Position numbers and translations under genes: made by a program. This document shows positions 1,760 to 57,279 of a DNA stretch of 64,000 nucleotides, piece after piece. The notes beneath the pieces were generated by a model. That model made no database searches, had not been told where the DNA came from, and saw only the letters and a program-made list of their open reading frames with translations. The stretch is from Dendrobates tinctorius (lineage: Eukaryota). Location of the stretch: positions 11,904,001-11,968,000 of the forward strand of contig NW_027361773.1 of assembly GCF_039654945.1 (NCBI RefSeq), in the 5' to 3' direction. How positions within the stretch are numbered: position 1 is the stretch's first letter; the number at the start of each line of letters is the position of its first letter.

Positions 1760-2235
1760 CCGGGCTTGGAGGAAATGCCGGCGGAGCCGCTGCCCCTGCA
1801 CCGGAGCACTGAGAGCCGCTACCCCTGCACCGGAGCACAGCCCGCTGCCACCACCGCACTACAGAGCCCCGCGACACCCGCACCAGCCTCCAGCAATGAT
1901 CACGGAGGTTAGTATATTGCGACCATAAGACGCACCCCCCACTTTCCCCCAAAATTTTTTGGGGAAAAAGTGCGTCTTATGGTCCGAAAAATACGGTATA
2001 TAGTCATTTGTTGCAAATAGTGTTATAATGCTAATACTTGGTCATAGATAGATTGGTGTTGAATTTTCAATATGTTAGTATTTAATTTAAATATTTGGTT
2101 GCATTATTTGTGTGTACAATATGACAGCATTACTTGTTTGTACGTTTTTGTAGTGTCGAAATGTCAGTGTATAATACATGGCAGCATTATTTTTCTGTTC
2201 AGTATATGGTGACATATACATATCACCATACATAT

Positions 2236-3000
2236 TGTGAGGTAGCGCTGTCATTTAGTTGGGTGATTCTCGCTAGGCAGCGAACAAATCACGTCCGGCA
2301 CAGGTTTTCCATCAAAACATAGCAGGTCCATGCGGTTTATTATGCAGCATAAACCATCACAGCAACAGACAGTTCATTTCACCAGCATAGCGTCCATTAC
2401 AGAGTTTCCATCTGTTACCAATGTCCAGCATAAACAGGCTCTTCAGCCTCATCACTATCTCACCCACGTCAGGGTTTCCTCATGGCTGTTGCTCCCCGCT
2501 GCAGACATCCACACTCTCCTCTGGGACTCTCAGATGCTGGCAGCCATTACACACAGCCACTCCACAGGCTGTTAGCCAGGAGACAACTCTACTCATGGGA
2601 CCTTCTGCTCTGGACCAACCAGGTCCCTGCATTCACCCCTTGTGACTCACCCCAGCCACATTATATCGTTCATAGCCACGCCCACTGGGTCACATGACTC
2701 TGACCTCATCACAGGTCCTTCAGGCATTTTCACACTCTTTACAACCGTGCTTTAAACACACCCCCTGGGTGAGTTTGTAGGTAACCAGGCCCCCCAACTC
2801 TCTAGTTACCTGGAGACTTCTCCCTCACATATTAACGCAGCACCTCAGCAATGTCCATGCTGATCACACATACATAAGTCTCCATCTCAAAGCCACCCAC
2901 TTTGAGATACATAACGGTCACTCAACACTCTGCCATTCATCCCTTCTCCTGGGACCTCCACACAGTGCCCCCTAGCGGACACAGTGGTTACTACACCACA
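2236..3000 (-). repeat. 3' LTR (765 bp)
   Basis: Begins TGTGGTGTAGTAACC on minus and ends TCACA; AATAAA on minus at 2336-2341. Confidence 0.85.
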
Positions 3001-3002
3001 TA

Positions 3003-3014
3003 CCTCCCCCCTCT
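3003..3014 (-). promoter_or_regulatory. Polypurine tract
   Basis: AGAGGGGGGAGG-TA immediately before the TG of the 3' LTR on minus. Confidence 0.85.
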
Positions 3015-3393
3015 GTTCAAACTTGTGGGGTTGAACACACAACATTACATCAGGCTCTTGAGACCAGGCACTCATTACACCTTGCCCCACAGGTTGAGAG
3101 AACCTTTTCCATCTGTCACACGGCCTCCTCTCTGCGTTCGGCCTCCCTTGCCCCCAGCAGTCAGAATATCGGTCCTGATCTTTGACCCTCCAGTTACAGT
3201 CTGTCTGCATCATCAAACACTGTCTAGTCACCATCTTCGTCTCTCTATTTGTTCCGTTCCCCGACTAGCTCCCCCGGTTGGTACGGTCATCCGTATTACT
3301 TGAGTCTACTGTCTGGCCTGAGTCTGACCCACTCAGCGTCTCAAAGGAACTAATGTCTCTCAGCCTCGTACGGCCCGTCGAACTGCCACTCAC

Positions 3394-4698
3394 TCACATT
3401 CTTCGGCCACCTGCCCGGTCACTTCTTGGTGGAACCCTTTGGGTCCTTACATGTTGTTGGGTTGGAGGCGGCCGCCACCTGGTATTCCGTACTTCTTCAT
3501 TAATTCGCCGATGGTCCAGCCTCAACTGCTCAATTGCCTGCAGGTACTCCACTCGATACTCCACGAGCATCCGAAAGTCTCTCAGGCTTTCCATGGAGCC
3601 AACCACCATGATGGGAATCCTACCCACTTCCCTGGATATCTGGTCTTCATCATCAGGAGGGATCCTCACCCTCACCACACCGGAGATATTCACAAGGTCC
3701 TGCATTACCTTCCCGGATCTTCCAATGATTCTTTCAATCAGAGCTTTGGGTACCGGAACCACACCTTTCCGCAAACCCAGCTGATCCATAGCCTCCTTCG
3801 CTAACTCTAGGCATCAAGCACCCTTCATATTACTCCACCTGACCAGCTGTTTGGCGTGGAGACATTGTAAATGCATTTCTTTCAGGACAGCCACTCGGTT
3901 TGATGTATCTTCTCTGGCTGATATTACCACCAACTGCCGAGTCTCAGGTGCCCAGTGCACCTCACACGCTTTGACCACCTCTTTGAAAGCCTCATGTACA
4001 CCTTCCTCCGCACAGGCTTCTTGCATGTCTTCGGGTACCTCAATCACAGACTGGAAGGTCGTGATCTTGCTTTCTTCCAGGAGGCTCTGGCTTTACCACG
4101 GACTCTTCCCTCACTACAGTTGCCCCTACTGGGTGACTGTCTTCTTCAGTTCTCCGTTCCTCAACTTCACGAGATCTCATCTCTTCCCGACGTCTGCCAA
4201 GACGGGCACCGGCAGCTCCGTTCCACCACCAGTCGGACCCGGCCTCTGTTCATCACTGTCCAAATTCTTCTCCCGCAGAAGACCACTTACAGTTTCTTTG
4301 AGCTCTAAGACCTCTTTCTCGAGCTTCTCAACCCTGTGCTCGGCTCGATGTCTCTGGACTGTTTCTCGTTTCACATGTTCTTCCATCTCTTCCCTGAGCG
4401 TCTTGTTCACGTTTTGCCACGTTGACAGGTGACCTCTGATCTCAGAGACTTCCTTCCCTAGCCCTTCTGTTCTGTGCTCTCTTTCCCTCTCAGAGCCACA
4501 ATCACCCCCAGAGTCTGAGTCACGCCGATCATCCGAGTCAACCCTCCAGTTGCCCTCTGACCGTGTGTCTACTCCAGTCAACTCATCTCCCAGCCCACCA
4601 TCTGTCTTGTCACGAGGCGTCAGGTCCGTCAGTTGGGCAGATGTATTTCTTCCTCTGTTAGCAAAGTCCAGCATACACAGGCTCTTCAGCCTCATCAT
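3394..4698 (-). pseudogene. Disrupted cargo ORF: coiled coil + FXR1/FMR1-like KH0 + KH2 + post-KH2 helix (KH1 and Agenet/Tudor absent)
   Basis: IEVPEDMQEACAEEGVHEAFKEVVKACEVHWAPETRQLVVISA...LKEMHL resembles FXR1 KH0; VPKALIERIIGRSGKVMQDLVNISGVVRVRI...VVGSMES...EYRVEYLQAIEQLR resembles FXR1 KH2 and the NES helix. The three ORF-track pieces (4177-4710, 3814-4047, 3394-3789) share one frame; a single TGA separates KH0 from KH2. Confidence 0.88.
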
Positions 4699-5234
4699 TA
4701 TCTCACCCACGTCAGGGTTTCCTCATTGCTGTTGCTCCCCGCTGCAGACATCCACTCTCTCCTCTGGGACTCTCAGATGCTGGCAGCCATTACACACAGC
4801 CACTCCACAGGCTGTTAGCCAGGAGACAACTCTACTCATGGGACCTTACGCTCTGGACCAACCTGGTACCTGCATTCACCCCTTGTGACTCACCCTGGCC
4901 ACATTATATCGTTTATAGCCACGCCCACTGGGTCACATGACTCTGACCTCATCACAGGTCCTTCAGGCATTTTCACACTCTTTACAACCGTGCTTTAAAC
5001 CCTGGGAGGGTTTGTAGGTAACCAGGCCCCCCCAACTCTCAAGTTACCTGGAGACTTCTCCCTCACATATTAACGCAGCACCTCAGCAATGTCCTTGCTG
5101 ATCACATATACATAAGTCTCCATCTCAAAGCCACCCACTTTGAGATACATAATGGCCACTCAACACTCATTCATCCCTTCTCCTGGGACCTCCACACAGT
5201 GCCCCCTAGTGGACACAGTGGTTACTACACCACA
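4650..5234 (-). repeat. 5' LTR, lacking its last ~175 bp and a PBS
   Basis: Matches 2410-3000 with scattered substitutions; homology ends near 4650. Confidence 0.85.
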
Positions 5235-5559
5235 ATATATATCCAGTATGACATCACTGTTTCTATAACAAACCGAGCCCCCTCTCTTCTGGTCACCATG
5301 CCCCAGCAGCAGGATTCTGCCTGTTCAGTGACTGAACATGCATCCTTGGATGTTCAGTTAAGATCTATATTGTCATGCGGGCAACAGTTAACAGCCGCCA
5401 GCCAATCACAGGCCGGCGGCTGACGTCAGCGCGCTTGTTGCCAGCGTATGAAATCACTGCCATATGCCGGCACTTCCGCACCTCAGATGCATCAAGGAGA
5501 GGACATCGCTGTACCTCAGCCAGGTAAGGAGAAACTTTTTTTTTTGTAAAGCCGCAGGA

Positions 5560-13259: not shown

Positions 13260-14480
13260 CACTCACTGGCCACTTTATTAGGTACACCATGCTAGTAAGG
13301 GGTTGGACCCCCTTTTGCCTTCAGAACTGCCTCAATTCTTCGTGGCAGAGATTCAACAAGGTGCTGGAAGCATTCCTCAGAGATTTTGGACCATATTGAC
13401 ATGATGGCATCACACAGTTGGCGCAGATTTGTCGGCTGCACATCCCTGATGCGAATCTCCCGTTCCACCACATCCCAAAGATGCTCTATTGGATTGAGAT
13501 CTGGTGACTGAGGAGGCCATTTGAGTACAGTAAACTCATTGTCATGTTCAAGAAACCAATCTGAGATGATTCGAGCTTTATGACATGGCGCATTATCCTG
13601 CTGAAAGTAGCCATCAGATGTTGGGTACATTGTGGTCATAAAGGGATGGACATGGTCAGCAACAATACTCAGGTAGGCTGTGGCGTTGCAACGATGCTCA
13701 ATTGGTACCAAGGGGCCCAAAGAGTGCCCAGAAAAAATTCCCCACACCATGACACCACCACCACCAGCCTGAACCGTTGATACAAGGCAGGATGGATCCA
13801 TGCTTTCATGTTGTTTACGCCAAATTCTGACCCTACCATCCGAATGTCGCAGCAGAAATCGAGACTCATCAGACCAGGCAACGTTTTTCCAATCTTCTAC
13901 TGTCCAATTTCGATGAGCTTGTGCAAATTGTAGCCTCAGTTTCCTGTTCTTAGCTGAGAGGAGTGGTACCCAGTGTGGTCTTCTGCTGCTGTAGCCCATC
14001 TGCCTCAAAGTTCGACGCACTGTGCGTTCAGAGATGCTCTTCTGCCTACCTTGGTTGTAACGGGTGGCAATTTGAGTCACTGTTGCCTTTCTATCAGCTC
14101 GAACCAGTCTGCCCATTCTCCTCTGACCTCTGGCATCAACATGGCATTTCCGGCCACAGAACTGCCGCTCACTGGATTTTTTTTCTTTTTCGGACCATTC
14201 TCTGTAAACCCTAGAGATGGTTGTGCGTGAAAATCCCAGTAGATCAGCAGTTTCTGAAATTCTCAGACCAGCCCTTCTGGCACCAACAATCATGCCACGT
14301 TCAAAGGCACTCAAATCACCTTTCTTCCCCATACTGATGCTCGGTTTGAACTGCAGGAGATTGTCTTGACCATGTCTACATGCCTAAATGCACTGAGTTG
14401 CCGCCATGTGATTGGCTGATTAGAAATTAAGTCTTAACACACAGTTTGACAGGTGTACCTAATAAAGTGGCCAGTGAGTG
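13260..14480 (-). mobile_element. Full-length Tc1 DD36E (Incomer-type) transposon
   Basis: TIR CACTCACTGGCCACTTTATTAGGTACACC at both ends; TA TSD; 1221 bp. Confidence 0.95.
13292..14332 (-). CDS. Intact 346-aa Tc1 transposase, DD36E
   Basis: HTH N-terminus; [18 protein letters not shown] with 36 residues between the second D and E. Confidence 0.95.
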
Positions 14481-41155: not shown

Positions 41156-44100
41156 TGTTGTGAACACTTTTGACCTGGCTTCTGAGTTTTGGCTCCCTCT
41201 GGTGGTTGGGCTCCCTGATTTCCGATTTATTCTCCAGAGTGAAAGGTGCTAGTTGGTTTACCAAGCTTGTCCTTAGGGGGCATATAATCTTATTCGCATC
41301 AAGCACGGTGATAAATGGAAGATGGCGTTTAATACTCCTGAGGGGCATTTTGAGTACCTAGTGATGCCTTTTGGGCTCACTAATGCCCCTTCCATCTTCC
41401 ACTCTTTCATGAACGATATTTTCCGGGATTTTGTGGACAAGATTTTGATCGTTTATTTGGACGATATTTTGATTTTTTCCAATGATTGGGATTCTCATGT
41501 GGATCATGTTCGGATTGTATTCCGGATTTTGAGAGAAAATGCTCTGTATGTAAAGGGATCGAAATGTCTCTTGGTGTACAAAAAATTTAGTTTTTGGGAT
41601 TCATTTTGTCCCCGTCCGCTATTGAAATGGACCCTGTCAAGGTCCAGGCCGTTTATGATTGGGTTCAGCCCACTTGCTTGAAGGCTCTCCAGAAATTTTT
41701 GGGTTTTGCTAATTTCTACTGTAAATTCATAAGTATTTTTTCTGGTATTGTTAAACCACTTACGGATTTGACCAAAAAGGGCGCTGATGTGGTGAATTGG
41801 TCTCCACAGGCAGTCTCGGCGTTTCAGGAGCTTAAGCGGAGATTCACCTCTGCTCCTGTTATTTCTCTCCCATTTCAGGTGGAGATAGATGCTTCTGAGA
41901 TTGGTGCAGGAGTCGTTTTGTCTCAAAGAGATCCAGTAACCTCTAAGATGAATCCTTGTGCCTTCTTTTCTCAAAAATTTTCCCCATCTGAACGTAATTA
42001 TGATGTGGGGAATCGGGAGTTGTTGGCTATGAAGTGGGCGTTTGAAGAGTGGAGACATTGGATGGAGGGGGCCAGACATTAAGTGGTGGTCCTCACCGAC
42101 CAGAAGAACTTGATCTATCTCGAATCGGCCAAGCGATTGAAACTTAGACAGGCTAGGTGGGCCTTGTTTTTCACGTGTTTTAATTTTGTGGTCTCCTTTC
42201 TTCCGGGCACTAAGAATATTAAGGCGGATGCCCTCTCTAGGAGTCTCCTTGCAGATTCTCTTGGTGTGACTGAGCCTACTACCATTCTAAATGAGGGTGA
42301 GATTCTTTCTGCTATTTCACCCGATTTGAGACTTGCCCTGGAGGAATTTCAGGAGGACAAACCCTTTGCCCTATGGGGAAATTATATGTCCCCGACCAGT
42401 GGAGAAGAGTAATGTCTGAAATTCATTGCTACCCGTTAGCTGGTCATCCTGGTATTTTTGGTACCAGAGATTTGGTGAGTCAGTCTTTTTGGTGGCCTAC
42501 TTTATCTTGTGATGTCAGGAATTTTGTGCACTCCTGTGGGACTTGTTCTCGGTCCAAACCCTGTTCTCGTTCTAGTGGATTGTTAGTGCCACTGCCGGTG
42601 CCCAGGAGGCCATGGACCCATATATCAATGGATTTTATTTCTGACCTCCCTGTCTCTCAGAGAATGACTGTTATCTGGGTGATCTGTGATAGATTTTCCA
42701 AGATTATCCATCTTGTACCACTGCCGAAGTTGCCATCCTCTTCTGAGTTGGTGTCCTTGTTTTTACAGCAGGTGGTTCATTTGCACGGTATTCCAGAGAA
42801 CATTGTGTCTGACAGAGGAGTCCAGTTTGTTTCCAGATTTTGGAGAGCTTTTTGTTCTAAACTGGGAATTCAGTTGTCCTTCTCCTATGCATTTCACCCT
42901 CAGACAAATGGGCAGACTGAGAGAGCAAACCAGACCTTGGAAACCTATTTGAGATGTTTTGTGTCTGCTGATCAAGATGACTGGGTCTCTTTTTTGCCCT
43001 TAGCTGAATTTGCTCTAAATGATAGGGCTAGTTCTGCTACTTTGATGTCTCCTTTTTTCTGCAACTTCGGGTTTCGTCCTCGGTTTTCTTCAGGGCAGGT
43101 GGAGGATTCGGCCTGTCCAGGGGTTGATTCTGTGGTAAAGGGAATGCAGCAGATTTTGGATCAAGTAGTGGATAAGTTGTCTCACTCTCAGGAGAAGGAC
43201 CAATGGTTTGCCAACTGGCATAGGACTGTTGTTCCCCGGTTTAAAGTGGGTGACATGGTTTGGTTGTCCTCAAAAAATATTCCTATGAAAGTTGCGTCTC
43301 CAAAATTTAAGCCAAGGTTCATTGGACCTTATAAGATTTTGGAAATCCTTAATCCCGTTTCTTTCCATTTGGCTCTTCCAGGAACGTTCAAGATTCACAA
43401 CGTCTTTCATAAATCTTTGTTGAAAAGGTTTGTGGAGCCAGTAGTTCCCATGGCTGCACCCCCTGATCCTGTATTGGTTAAGGGTAATCTGGAGTATGAA
43501 GTATAGAAGGTATTGGATTCTCGTCTGGCTAGATGGAGACTCCAATACTTGGTCAAGTGGAAAGGTTATGGTCAGGAGGATAATTCTTGGGTCTTTGCTT
43601 CTGACATTCATGCTGAGAGATTGGTTCTCGTCTTTCTCCGGGCCCATCCTGATCGGCCTGGTGGCGTGGGTGAGGGTTTGGTGACCCCTCCTCAAGGGCG
43701 GGTACTGTTGTGAACACTTTTGACCTGGCTTCTGAGTTTGGGCTCCCACTGGTGGTTGCTGCTGGTAATGGAGCTGGTCTGGCTAACAGAAGTCAATCAC
43801 CTGAGCAGGAAGATTGGAGGTCAGGTGTTACAGACTGAAGTGATTTAAGTGAGCAACCTTCCCTCAGCTCTTGCCGGTGATTTGGTTTTCTTCCTAAGCT
43901 TTTTGGAAGTCTGCTTGCCTCCTGCTTCGTCCTGAATCTTTCAGATAAGTTATTTGTCTGCTTGAACCTTTTTGCATTTCTGCCTTGCTGGTGTTAGTCC
44001 AGCCTGGTTCCCTGCTGGGACCTGTGCTGGACTCTGTTTCATTTGCCTCAGCTTATGTCAGTCTTTGCAGTATTTCTAGTCCCCTGTTATATCAGAGTCT

Positions 44101-55595: not shown

Positions 55596-57279
<1,684 letters not shown>

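Follow-up and report, generated by a model that had tools for sequence, protein, structure and literature searches.

Does the LTR-bounded insert in this stretch of Dendrobates tinctorius DNA carry a host RNA-binding protein, and if so what might a transposon gain from it? The window, by which we mean the whole stretch of 64,000 nucleotides analysed, holds the element at 5234..2236 on the minus strand, with ends TGT...ACA and without reverse transcriptase (RT), integrase or capsid. ATAT borders it on either side (2232-2235 and 5235-5238), a duplication which alone is weak evidence because the insertion site is AT-rich. The element is a dead, 5'-deleted copy of a non-autonomous Gmr1-like Ty3/gypsy family, and its features are as follows.

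2232..2235, no strand: target-site duplication ATAT, left
2236..3000, minus: 3' LTR, complete, 765 nt, TGT...ACA, ~76% to full-copy LTRs
3001..3022, minus: polypurine tract, which also adjoins the LTR in pol-bearing Gmr1-like elements
3007..3033, minus: pol C-terminus remnant QPHKFEQRG, as found 3' of RNase H in pol-bearing relatives
3034..3462, minus: arginine-rich tail, the strongly decayed FXR1 C-terminal region, interrupted by stops (3396, 3267) and under little or no selection
3463..3561, minus: second FXR1 coiled-coil helix, with EYRVEYLQAIEQLR at 3561-3520; host V361 read as I; helix in the model
3562..3777, minus: KH2 domain, GxxG loop GRSG at 3723-3712, Pfam KH_1 E 7.9e-6
3778..3813, minus: KH1-deletion junction (60 FXR1 residues missing), stop 3816-3814 immediately before
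3814..4062, minus: KH0 domain and first coiled-coil helix, Pfam KH_9 E 1.3e-14, EMHLQCL at 3879-3859, host N202 kept
4095..4179, minus: out-of-frame stretch, five stops
4276..4482, minus: coiled coil, origin without match, a 120-residue helix (pLDDT >90) in the P0002 model
4483..4654, minus: linker remaining after the internal 5' deletion
4650..5234, minus: 5' LTR, ~175 nt short, 21 differences in 584 sites against the 3' LTR
5235..5238, no strand: target-site duplication ATAT, right

An earlier note on this DNA had described an LTR-polypurine tract-LTR structure flanked by ATAT. The ends, the duplications and the purine tract stand, but the 5' LTR is incomplete and aligns with the 3' LTR, from which it differs by 3.7%, over only ~584 of 765 nt. 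The 5' deletion took the primer site, the leader, the first ~235 codons, the protease remnant and the gag repeats. The note was right that RT, integrase and gag capsid are lacking. The blocks of the sense-strand ORF it reported are readable, although the frame is interrupted by the out-of-frame stretch and by the stops at 3816, 3396 and 3267. The blocks themselves (KH0, KH2 with GRSG, the EYRVEYLQAIEQLR helix and a coiled coil) were recovered, with Pfam spans at 4092-3814 for FMRP KH0 and 3813-3394 for KH_1, and KH2 of an intact copy matches 2QND at E 8e-17.

Exact matches to the KH0 motif occur at no fewer than 2,430 places in the genome, and the control gave 0. Full copies are ~4.9 kb long with 4-bp target duplications and hold a single frame of 830-900 codons, which reads, in order, gag-linker repeats, protease remnant, coiled coil, FXR1-derived KH0-KH2-helix, basic tail and pol end. 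Since the FXR1 part takes the slot of integrase, RT and RNase H amid remnants of gag, protease and pol, it is not the sole content of the element. The earlier note's "only cargo" is therefore a real FXR1 part but one fused to other retroelement pieces, and the captured FXR gene it proposed is captured, but as a chimera (gag/protease-FXR1-pol end) and not as a free-standing cargo gene.

The family has moved very recently. In the young subfamily all 150 scored copies are 98-100% identical over 203 residues and free of stops. For LTR comparison, 40 stretches were retrieved for long frames or high score, a sample biased towards young copies; both LTRs were measurable in 29, with divergence of 0-0.032 and five identical pairs. 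Exact 4-bp duplications flank 23 of these 29, in 13 different sequences, and all 29 have a primer site of type TGGTGGAGAA or TGGTGACAGA (one reads CGG) 2-3 bases past the 5' LTR. The corresponding tRNA we take to be tRNA-Ala; one pattern search found no tRNA gene matching the site. Two repeats, L202 356-1104 and 7955-8732, appeared LTR-like at first look and are not LTRs. Contigs from four runs that we guessed to be RNA span 30 of 30 bins of one element; in host FXR1, taken as control, exons were uncovered and an intronic repeat was covered, and the contigs are therefore given no weight as a sign of expression. None of the sequence records that contain the family is listed as RNA.

Gmr1-like elements have the pol order protease-integrase-RT-RNase H. 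Our family is homologous to them in its LTR ends (TG...CA), 4-bp duplication, polypurine tract, protease, gag linker and pol end, but lacks capsid, integrase, RT and RNase H and has a host RNA-binding fragment in frame in their place; with these enzymes missing from family copies and the pol order present in relatives L090 and L180, we regard it as a non-autonomous derivative and not as a full member. In 70 pattern matches, against 0 for the control, the pol end motif QPHKFEQRG lies 3' of RNase H. The protease remnant is 49% identical to the protease of a candidate helper over 82 residues (E 5e-18) and its atlas look-alikes are retroviral aspartyl proteases; none of four pieces had a Pfam match, and wherever the triad could be read (20 of 40 copies) it was DSE, DSK, ESE or similar. 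What remains of gag is the linker motif and, in old copies only, a zinc knuckle. A SCAN capsid had no match in five full family frames and is present in L090, L091 and L180; frogs are known to have Gmr1-like elements that contain SCAN domains (available text of PMC4131045 and PMC3424704).

Searches for longer gag-pol relatives of the family, and for a pol-bearing element with its exact LTR start, found none. The first pol-bearing family encountered (the 70 matches) was rejected as helper on its differing LTRs and counts as a sister family. The likely helper, judging from sequence, is a young and intact family of the Gmr1-like type: all eight retrieved copies have a 1433-codon frame with SCAN-like capsid, integrase, RT and RNase H in order, their LTR pairs are 96.5-99.8% identical, and their flanks carry 4-bp duplications as those of the family do. 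The U5 and primer-site region matches the young subfamily at 73-88% over 210-260 nt, and the polypurine tract is shared; the window copy's subfamily has only a 35-nt patch and the polypurine tract in common with this candidate.

We then ask where the cargo came from. It is almost certainly an FXR1-derived part of a Gmr1-like element. In our tree, which long branches may influence, it falls within frog FXR1 (bootstrap 99), separate from FXR2 and FMR1. Host FXR1 introns are absent from it, and homology begins near host residue 113. Identity to vertebrate FXR1 is 41-57% over 197 columns, with ~41% for the window copy's subfamily, close to the 40% estimated in the earlier note. Divergence from the host since capture is dN 0.3-0.4 and dS 1.2-2.2, so that synonymous sites are near saturation and the capture is ancient, as had been suspected. 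KH0 scores above the Pfam KH_9 cut-off, and in the P0002 model lies 1.2-1.4 A rmsd from FMRP KH0 (4QVZ/4OVA); FXMRP1_C_core is above cut-off in P0003 only (one of five models). Domain search gave no Agenet/Tudor match in family proteins, and the tails of two copies, 18% arginine, have 0 RGG against 2 in the host. The cargo thus has KH0, KH2 with GxxG and both coiled coils in common with vertebrate FXR1, a member of the FMRP family, but differs in lacking Tudor/Agenet, KH1, RGG and introns and in being fused to retroelement parts. For the coiled coil upstream, no source was found among the 150 representatives listed.

Such captured fragments could conceivably act as RNA, through element-derived piRNAs that hit host FXR1 mRNA, and captured nxf2, piwi and aub fragments in Drosophila telomeric elements are a precedent (available text of PMC13534243). 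We give this reading almost no credence: the cargo is only 60-68% identical to host FXR1 nucleotides, and in all seven copies compared the longest stretch of exact identity is 8-14 nt, whereas in the Drosophila case targeting is nearly absent at 79-82% identity (same source), and selection in the frog family acts on amino acids.

The alignment to FXR1, thought to be gapless in the earlier note, lacks 60 residues (KH1) between KH0 and KH2. A KH1 search of the genome gave five matches among nine candidates, of which three are host genes and two are old copies of the element. In the main subfamilies KH1 was removed by a 60-codon deletion that is in frame and leaves both flanking domains whole. 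Since older copies and Anomaloglossus models retain KH1, its loss postdates capture, and the KH1 GxxG is already broken in copies that still hold the domain. Exon skipping had seemed an attractive cause, as the gap opens close to the exon 7/8 border and there are FXR1 isoforms that skip exon 8; it was rejected, the gap being 60 codons and the exon 57, and KH1 being still present in older copies that share the backbone. Three named Dendrobatidae species have all retained the folds of KH0 and KH2 together with the GxxG loop; in position-picked copies GxxG is kept in 35 of 40, N202 in 37 of 40, and V361 as I in 32 of 40 (8 unread).

In the lineage that propagates, the FXR1 cargo is very probably under purifying selection at the protein level, judging by several sequence comparisons. 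Between subfamilies dN/dS is 0.28 in KH0, 0.38 in KH2 plus helix and 0.71 in the tail, and a codon model gave omega 0.46 against 0.78 for the tail. Because a first test of private against shared variants (shared meaning present in three or more copies) used score-picked copies, it was repeated on 40 position-picked copies, with weaker results per region: N/S in the FXR part was 191/92 for private and 47/56 for shared variants (p 0.00014), with p 0.003 for the protease remnant, 0.067 for the coiled coil and 0.17 for the tail. KH2 plus helix by itself was non-significant in this unbiased sample in both subfamilies (p 0.28, 0.17). No stops are common to three or more of these copies, and the constraint on the protease remnant equals that on the FXR part. 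Multiple copies that differ in their target duplications, which the earlier note proposed to look for, were found; young copies have unbroken frames, and the family is under purifying selection. Neither a missing FXR hit nor a single copy with dN/dS near 1 was observed; there is an FXR1 match, and at least 2,430 LTR-flanked loci with dN/dS well below 1 also set the family apart from an ordinary processed pseudogene, with its few copies, neutral decay and LINE-type ends.

One could object that the FXR1 piece is along for the ride, with only an open frame mattering (for RNA stability) and the signal of selection arising from mutation bias and a small number of source copies. Broken copies run to thousands, and among the 40 position-picked ones 32 have no frame of 750 codons; a variant that several copies share does not count as several independent events; and LTR-mediated retrocopies are common (available text of PMC5470649). 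This reading is already weakened and we consider it improbable, because amino-acid changes are depleted beyond stops, and more in the folded parts than in the tail, because dN since capture is far below dS, and because the 60-codon deletion preserved frame and domains.

It might also be that the frog has domesticated a handful of copies, perhaps for storing RNA in oocytes, and that these give rise to the remainder. RefSeq indeed holds 'fxr1-like' or 'fragile X ... homolog' gene models in several poison frogs, and the Anomaloglossus models retain more of FXR1. We find this very hard to credit, given young copies with LTRs, primer sites and varied target duplications, and given that the closest pairings of Dendrobates with Ranitomeya models are at 53-57%, unlike a conserved single-copy gene. 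The 'fxr1-like' and 'myosin-9-like' models of poison frogs are element copies, which should serve as a warning to annotators.

The second of these names reflects a sister lineage with a myosin tail in the same cargo slot. At all eight myosin-tail loci LTR, linker and pol end are the same and the FXR part is swapped out. The lineage numbers at least 150 copies, so FXR1 is dispensable for spread, and its presence on the same backbone weakens any FXR-specific reading. A generic scaffold, in which an oligomerising soluble protein hitches to helper Gag-Pol, perhaps by way of its protease-like part, and carries RNA, with FXR1 and myosin as interchangeable coiled-coil fillers, would accommodate this, and also the purifying selection on the protease remnant despite its altered triad. 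We nevertheless think it rather unlikely, since KH folds and GxxG loop persist across species, the protease remnant is modelled only at low confidence (P0002 model), and the very young subfamily found carries FXR1, whereas scored myosin copies are 77-88% to the query.

The account we prefer, though we would put it at a little under an even chance, is of a non-autonomous Gmr1-like family with selected FXR1, copied by a helper, whose chimeric protein attaches to the RNA that encodes it and joins FXR1/FMR1 granules. Capture would have occurred by template switching on spliced FXR1 mRNA, and mobilisation would depend on the intact Gmr1-like helper. The chimeric frame would be translated in germ cells, and KH2 with the basic tail would bind RNA, preferably the RNA that encoded the protein; selection theory calls for this preference, since selection can hardly maintain a product of a non-autonomous element that acts purely in trans. 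Through its two FXR coiled coils the complex may dock into host FXR1/FMR1 germ-cell granules, where the RNA might be shielded from decay or silencing and compete better for helper particles. FXR1 dimerisation and its mRNP network need both coiled coils, N202 and V361, and a KH1 point mutation strongly cuts FXR1 mRNA binding (available text of PMC10635158); with KH1 gone, RNA binding by KH2 only may therefore be weak. Own-RNA binding with granule docking is a tentative proposal that falls somewhat short of probable.

KH0 and the coiled coils make contacts with proteins, which a trans-acting decoy fits equally: a protein without Tudor, KH1 and RGG boxes would enter FXR1/FMR1 assemblies by its two coiled coils, poison the network and weaken germ-cell silencing of transposons, aiding family and helper alike. 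What is retained is the assembly parts (N202, V361 as I) and what is lost the effector parts, KH1 being already broken where it persists; the FXR1 network partners include TOP3B and TDRD3 (PMC10635158, available text), and dFmr1 loss raises transposon RNA in fly ovaries (PMC5454977, available text). We judge the decoy unlikely even so. A benefit common to all copies invites non-coding cheats, which sits less easily with long purifying selection unless each germ cell expresses only a few copies; the KH2 GxxG is kept in most copies; host FXR1 does not look as if it had evolved to escape (Ranitomeya and Anomaloglossus are 98% identical in the cargo region); and a role of frog FXR1 in silencing, which the decoy presumes, is putative.

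Non-autonomous LTR elements normally lose coding sequence, and FMRP-family proteins are tied to fly transposon silencing and targeted by viruses. A stolen protein under amino-acid selection in thousands of copies suggests that the protein aids spread. It is possible, if on balance doubtful, that a spreading parasite made FXR1 its transposition factor, with stripped FXR1 in germline granules shielding or packaging element RNA or blunting silencing, retained throughout poison frogs for tens of millions of years in a swappable cargo slot, and adding to their very large genomes. The family is a candidate for one of the drivers behind the retrotransposon load of poison-frog genomes. It is also a natural structure-function dissection, with assembly helices and KH2 kept and Tudor, KH1 and RGG dropped, and makes an FMRP-family role in vertebrate germline defence testable in frog oocytes.

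In the literature we found no LTR element described as carrying FXR1, and neither FXR1 nor 'fragile' occurs in the main text of four papers examined for these terms; the family may stand in Repbase or Dfam without its cargo noted. Among known systems, the crocodilian CrocERV29 and CrocERV31 (KIT-ligand/nectin3) likewise hold spliced host mRNA in an LTR element, in several copies under purifying selection (available text of PMC4299795). These are 6-9 old retroviral copies, whereas the frog family runs to thousands of copies, some inserted very recently, is without env and pol, and carries a cargo remodelled by domain loss. The Drosophila telomeric elements resemble it in being active and carrying part of a host transposon-control gene, but their fragments are 140-235 bp at 76-95% and act via piRNAs (PMC13534243, in the text available), while the frog cargo is ~200 codons of folded protein at far lower nucleotide identity. 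LTR-mediated retrocopies formed by template switching in maize are, like the family, intronless partial coding sequences between LTRs (PMC5470649, available text); they are usually low-copy and decaying, whereas the frog family is long-lived and radiating, has its chimeric frame under selection and includes a second cargo. Finally, in the known link between SCAN genes and Gmr1-like elements the host gained from the element, and in the FXR1 family the element gained from the host.

The element under study runs on the minus strand from 5234 to 2236, has TGT...ACA ends and is flanked at each end by ATAT. Two of its parts were delimited as follows.

2236-3000, minus strand: complete 3' LTR (LTR comparison)
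3001-3022, minus strand: polypurine tract (sequence inspection)

These ends, purine tract and flanks bear out the earlier note's LTR-tract-LTR structure with an ATAT duplication, and its FXR/FMR1-family match is significant in Pfam (FMRP KH0, E 1.3e-14; KH domain, E 7.9e-6). The LTR pair shows 21 differences over ~584 nt (K2P 0.037), which at 2.5e-9 per site per year, the rate used in bioRxiv 10.1101/2023.11.06.565769, would date the insertion to about 7 million years ago. A deletion has taken out the final ~175 nt of the 5' LTR together with primer site, leader and the frame's first ~235 codons, and what is left of the frame is broken by an out-of-frame stretch (4179-4095) and by stops at 3816, 3396 and 3267. 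This copy is dead. Elsewhere in the window we noted a MITE-like element (908-2007) that is bounded by 38-nt terminal inverted repeats and contains both a GC-rich minisatellite and a 94-nt internal palindrome (1552-1759), a decayed gypsy pol with RT ahead of integrase (41280-43503), and two 363-codon frames (13295-14383 and 55921-57009) that by eye look like Tc1-type transposase.

A search of the genome (G000) for the KH2 part returned 5,588 candidates, of which 150 were scored (82-100% identical). The exact seven-codon KH0 motif occurs at 2,430 places, a lower bound on copies, against none for the control. All 150 scored copies of a second, young subfamily are 98-100% identical over 203 residues and free of stops. 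Forty stretches of 9-10 kb, chosen for long frames or high score, were fetched. Both LTRs were measurable in 29 (length 4.3-6.0 kb; LTR divergence 0-0.032), with exact 4-bp duplications in 23, identical LTR pairs in five of these score- or frame-picked copies, and a primer-site-like motif 3' of the 5' LTR. The multiple LTR-flanked copies that the earlier note asked to look for are present. Frames of 883-1063 codons were found in 18 of 19 young-subfamily copies picked by score or frame, and frames of at least 750 codons in 8 of 40 copies picked by position. The family's named protein models, labelled 'uncharacterized' or 'fxr1-like', belong to Dendrobates tinctorius, Ranitomeya imitator and R. 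variabilis, which marks G000 as a poison-frog genome. At G000:C225:7470849-7484047 four copies stand in tandem, spaced ~4.2 kb.

Several observations point to FXR1 as the source of the cargo. Host FXR1 has introns at positions that the element reads straight through. In a tree of 197 columns, which leaves out KH1 and has long branches, all element proteins group in a single clade (bootstrap 100) within frog FXR1 (99), separate from FXR2 and FMR1. The residue most common among the element proteins agrees with FXR1 rather than FMR1 by 16 to 7 (36 diagnostic sites) and rather than FXR2 by 14 to 4 (27 diagnostic sites). A third host paralogue, FXR2-like (L197-L198, G000:C2:828001-848000), is far more diverged than FXR1 and FMR1. 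Across seven copies, nucleotide identity to host FXR1 is 60-68%, with dN 0.29-0.40 and dS 1.2-2.2; this dS and the nesting in frog FXR1 uphold the ancient, diverged capture proposed at the outset. Targeting of host FXR1 by element piRNAs is unlikely given divergence of this order (compare PMC13534243).

Besides three host genes, the KH1 search of G000 returned two old, decayed copies of the element, L202 (G000:C1:3205400-3215300) and L203 (G000:C153:60800-70700). In both, KH1 survives with a broken loop, as do a zinc knuckle and a longer stretch of the FXR1 C-terminal region, and they represent an intermediate stage. Three Anomaloglossus baeobatrachus models (P0131, P0132, P0297) are diverged and FXR1-like, lack Tudor domains and have a broken KH1 loop. 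Both old copies (L203 only partly aligned) and two of these models join the element clade, so the capture is probably older than the split between Aromobatidae and Dendrobatidae, which lies some tens of millions of years back. The captured piece likely spanned about residues 113 to 590, trimmed later, and the P0131 alignment across the host exon 14/16 junction hints that the source isoform lacked exon 15.

Full-length frames are built, in order, of GVESQKG repeats, a protease remnant, a linker, a coiled coil, KH0, KH2, the helix, a basic tail and QPHKFEQRG, the last continuing into the 3' LTR. The protease has no Pfam match in family frames; its look-alikes in the atlas are retroviral aspartyl proteases. 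One model from Ranitomeya whose DSG triad is intact shares 49% identity (E 5e-18) with the protease of a pol-bearing G000 element whose gag linker holds GAESQKG, and an RNase H end joined to the family purine tract occurs at 70 places (control, 0). In the pol-bearing relatives L090 and L180 the Pfam order is SCAN-like capsid, integrase, RT, RNase H, which is the Gmr1 arrangement. Gmr1 elements with SCAN are described in frogs (PMC4131045). The homologous protease, gag linker and pol end, with this order, indicate that integrase-RT-RNase H gave way to an in-frame FXR1 sequence and that the capsid was lost. In models P0123, P0270 and P0273 two distinct protease remnants stand in tandem, which suggests that lineages have recombined.

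A candidate helper (L178-L185) is a young, intact Gmr1-like family of 5.1 kb with many copies at identical score, a single 1433-codon gag-pol frame in 8/8 fetched copies and LTR pairs 96.5-99.8% identical. It shares the purine tract end with the young subfamily, and the U5 and primer-site region is 73-88% identical; it is likely that subfamily's helper. The window's subfamily has only a 35-nt patch and the purine tract in common with it, and a pol-bearing element whose LTR begins exactly like the family's was not found in G000; here this family is a putative helper.

Between subfamilies (97 copies, pairs not independent), dN/dS is 0.28 in KH0, 0.38 in KH2 plus helix, 0.35 in the coiled coil, 0.51 in the protease remnant and 0.71 in the arginine-rich tail. 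Third codon positions vary most, the tail excepted, and codon-model omega is 0.46 for the FXR part, 0.67 for the protease remnant and 0.78 for the tail. In the window's subfamily, copies picked by score give private versus shared N/S counts of 98/28 versus 50/45 for KH0 and 183/84 versus 106/48 for the tail. Among position-picked copies (n=40), where the test excluded multi-base differences and any variant present in just two copies, the pooled FXR part gives 191/92 versus 47/56 (p 0.00014); p is 0.003 for the protease remnant, 0.067 for the coiled coil and 0.17 for the tail. Single regions frequently fall short of significance. The GxxG loop is kept in 35/40 of these copies, and the host coiled-coil residues N202 in 37/40 and V361, as I, in 32/40 (8 unread). 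In the predicted structure of P0002, a family protein, pLDDT exceeds 90 in KH0, in KH2 and in a coiled coil of 120 residues; confidence is low elsewhere, and one continuous helix spans the KH1 deletion. The best fold matches of this model are FMRP KH1-KH2 and KH0.

In a sister lineage (L204-L211, e.g. G000:C309:2301665-2305054; P0128) the place of the FXR1 part is taken by a fragment of a myosin II tail (Pfam Myosin_tail_1, E 9e-75). Of its 1,026 candidates in G000, 150 were scored, and all eight fetched loci have the family LTR and pol end. This lineage on the same backbone, and constraint on the protease remnant, lend support to a generic scaffold, a reading we consider improbable.

Any benefit of a non-autonomous element's protein would have to return to the RNA encoding it, otherwise there would be no gain. 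In FXR1 both coiled coils are needed for the dimer and mRNP network, partners include FMR1, TOP3B and TDRD3, and KH1 mutation lowers mRNA binding (PMC10635158). Judging from which FXR1 parts are kept, the chimeric protein may dock into FXR granules and, by way of KH2 and the basic tail, hold its own RNA, a reading we put at somewhat short of an even chance; the same parts would suit a decoy acting against host FXR assemblies, which seems rather unlikely. In fly ovaries, transposon RNA rises when dFmr1 is lost (PMC5454977), and FXR proteins are known to be bound by a viral protein (PMC10897489).

No account of FXR1 within a retroelement of frogs turned up in literature searches or in the main texts consulted. 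Capture of host mRNA by LTR elements is already known (PMC5470649, PMC4299795); what is unusual here is that several features come together: copies number in the thousands and some inserted very recently, the cargo is fused in frame to gag/protease remnants, its domains were trimmed step by step, selection acts at the protein level, and there is a second cargo.
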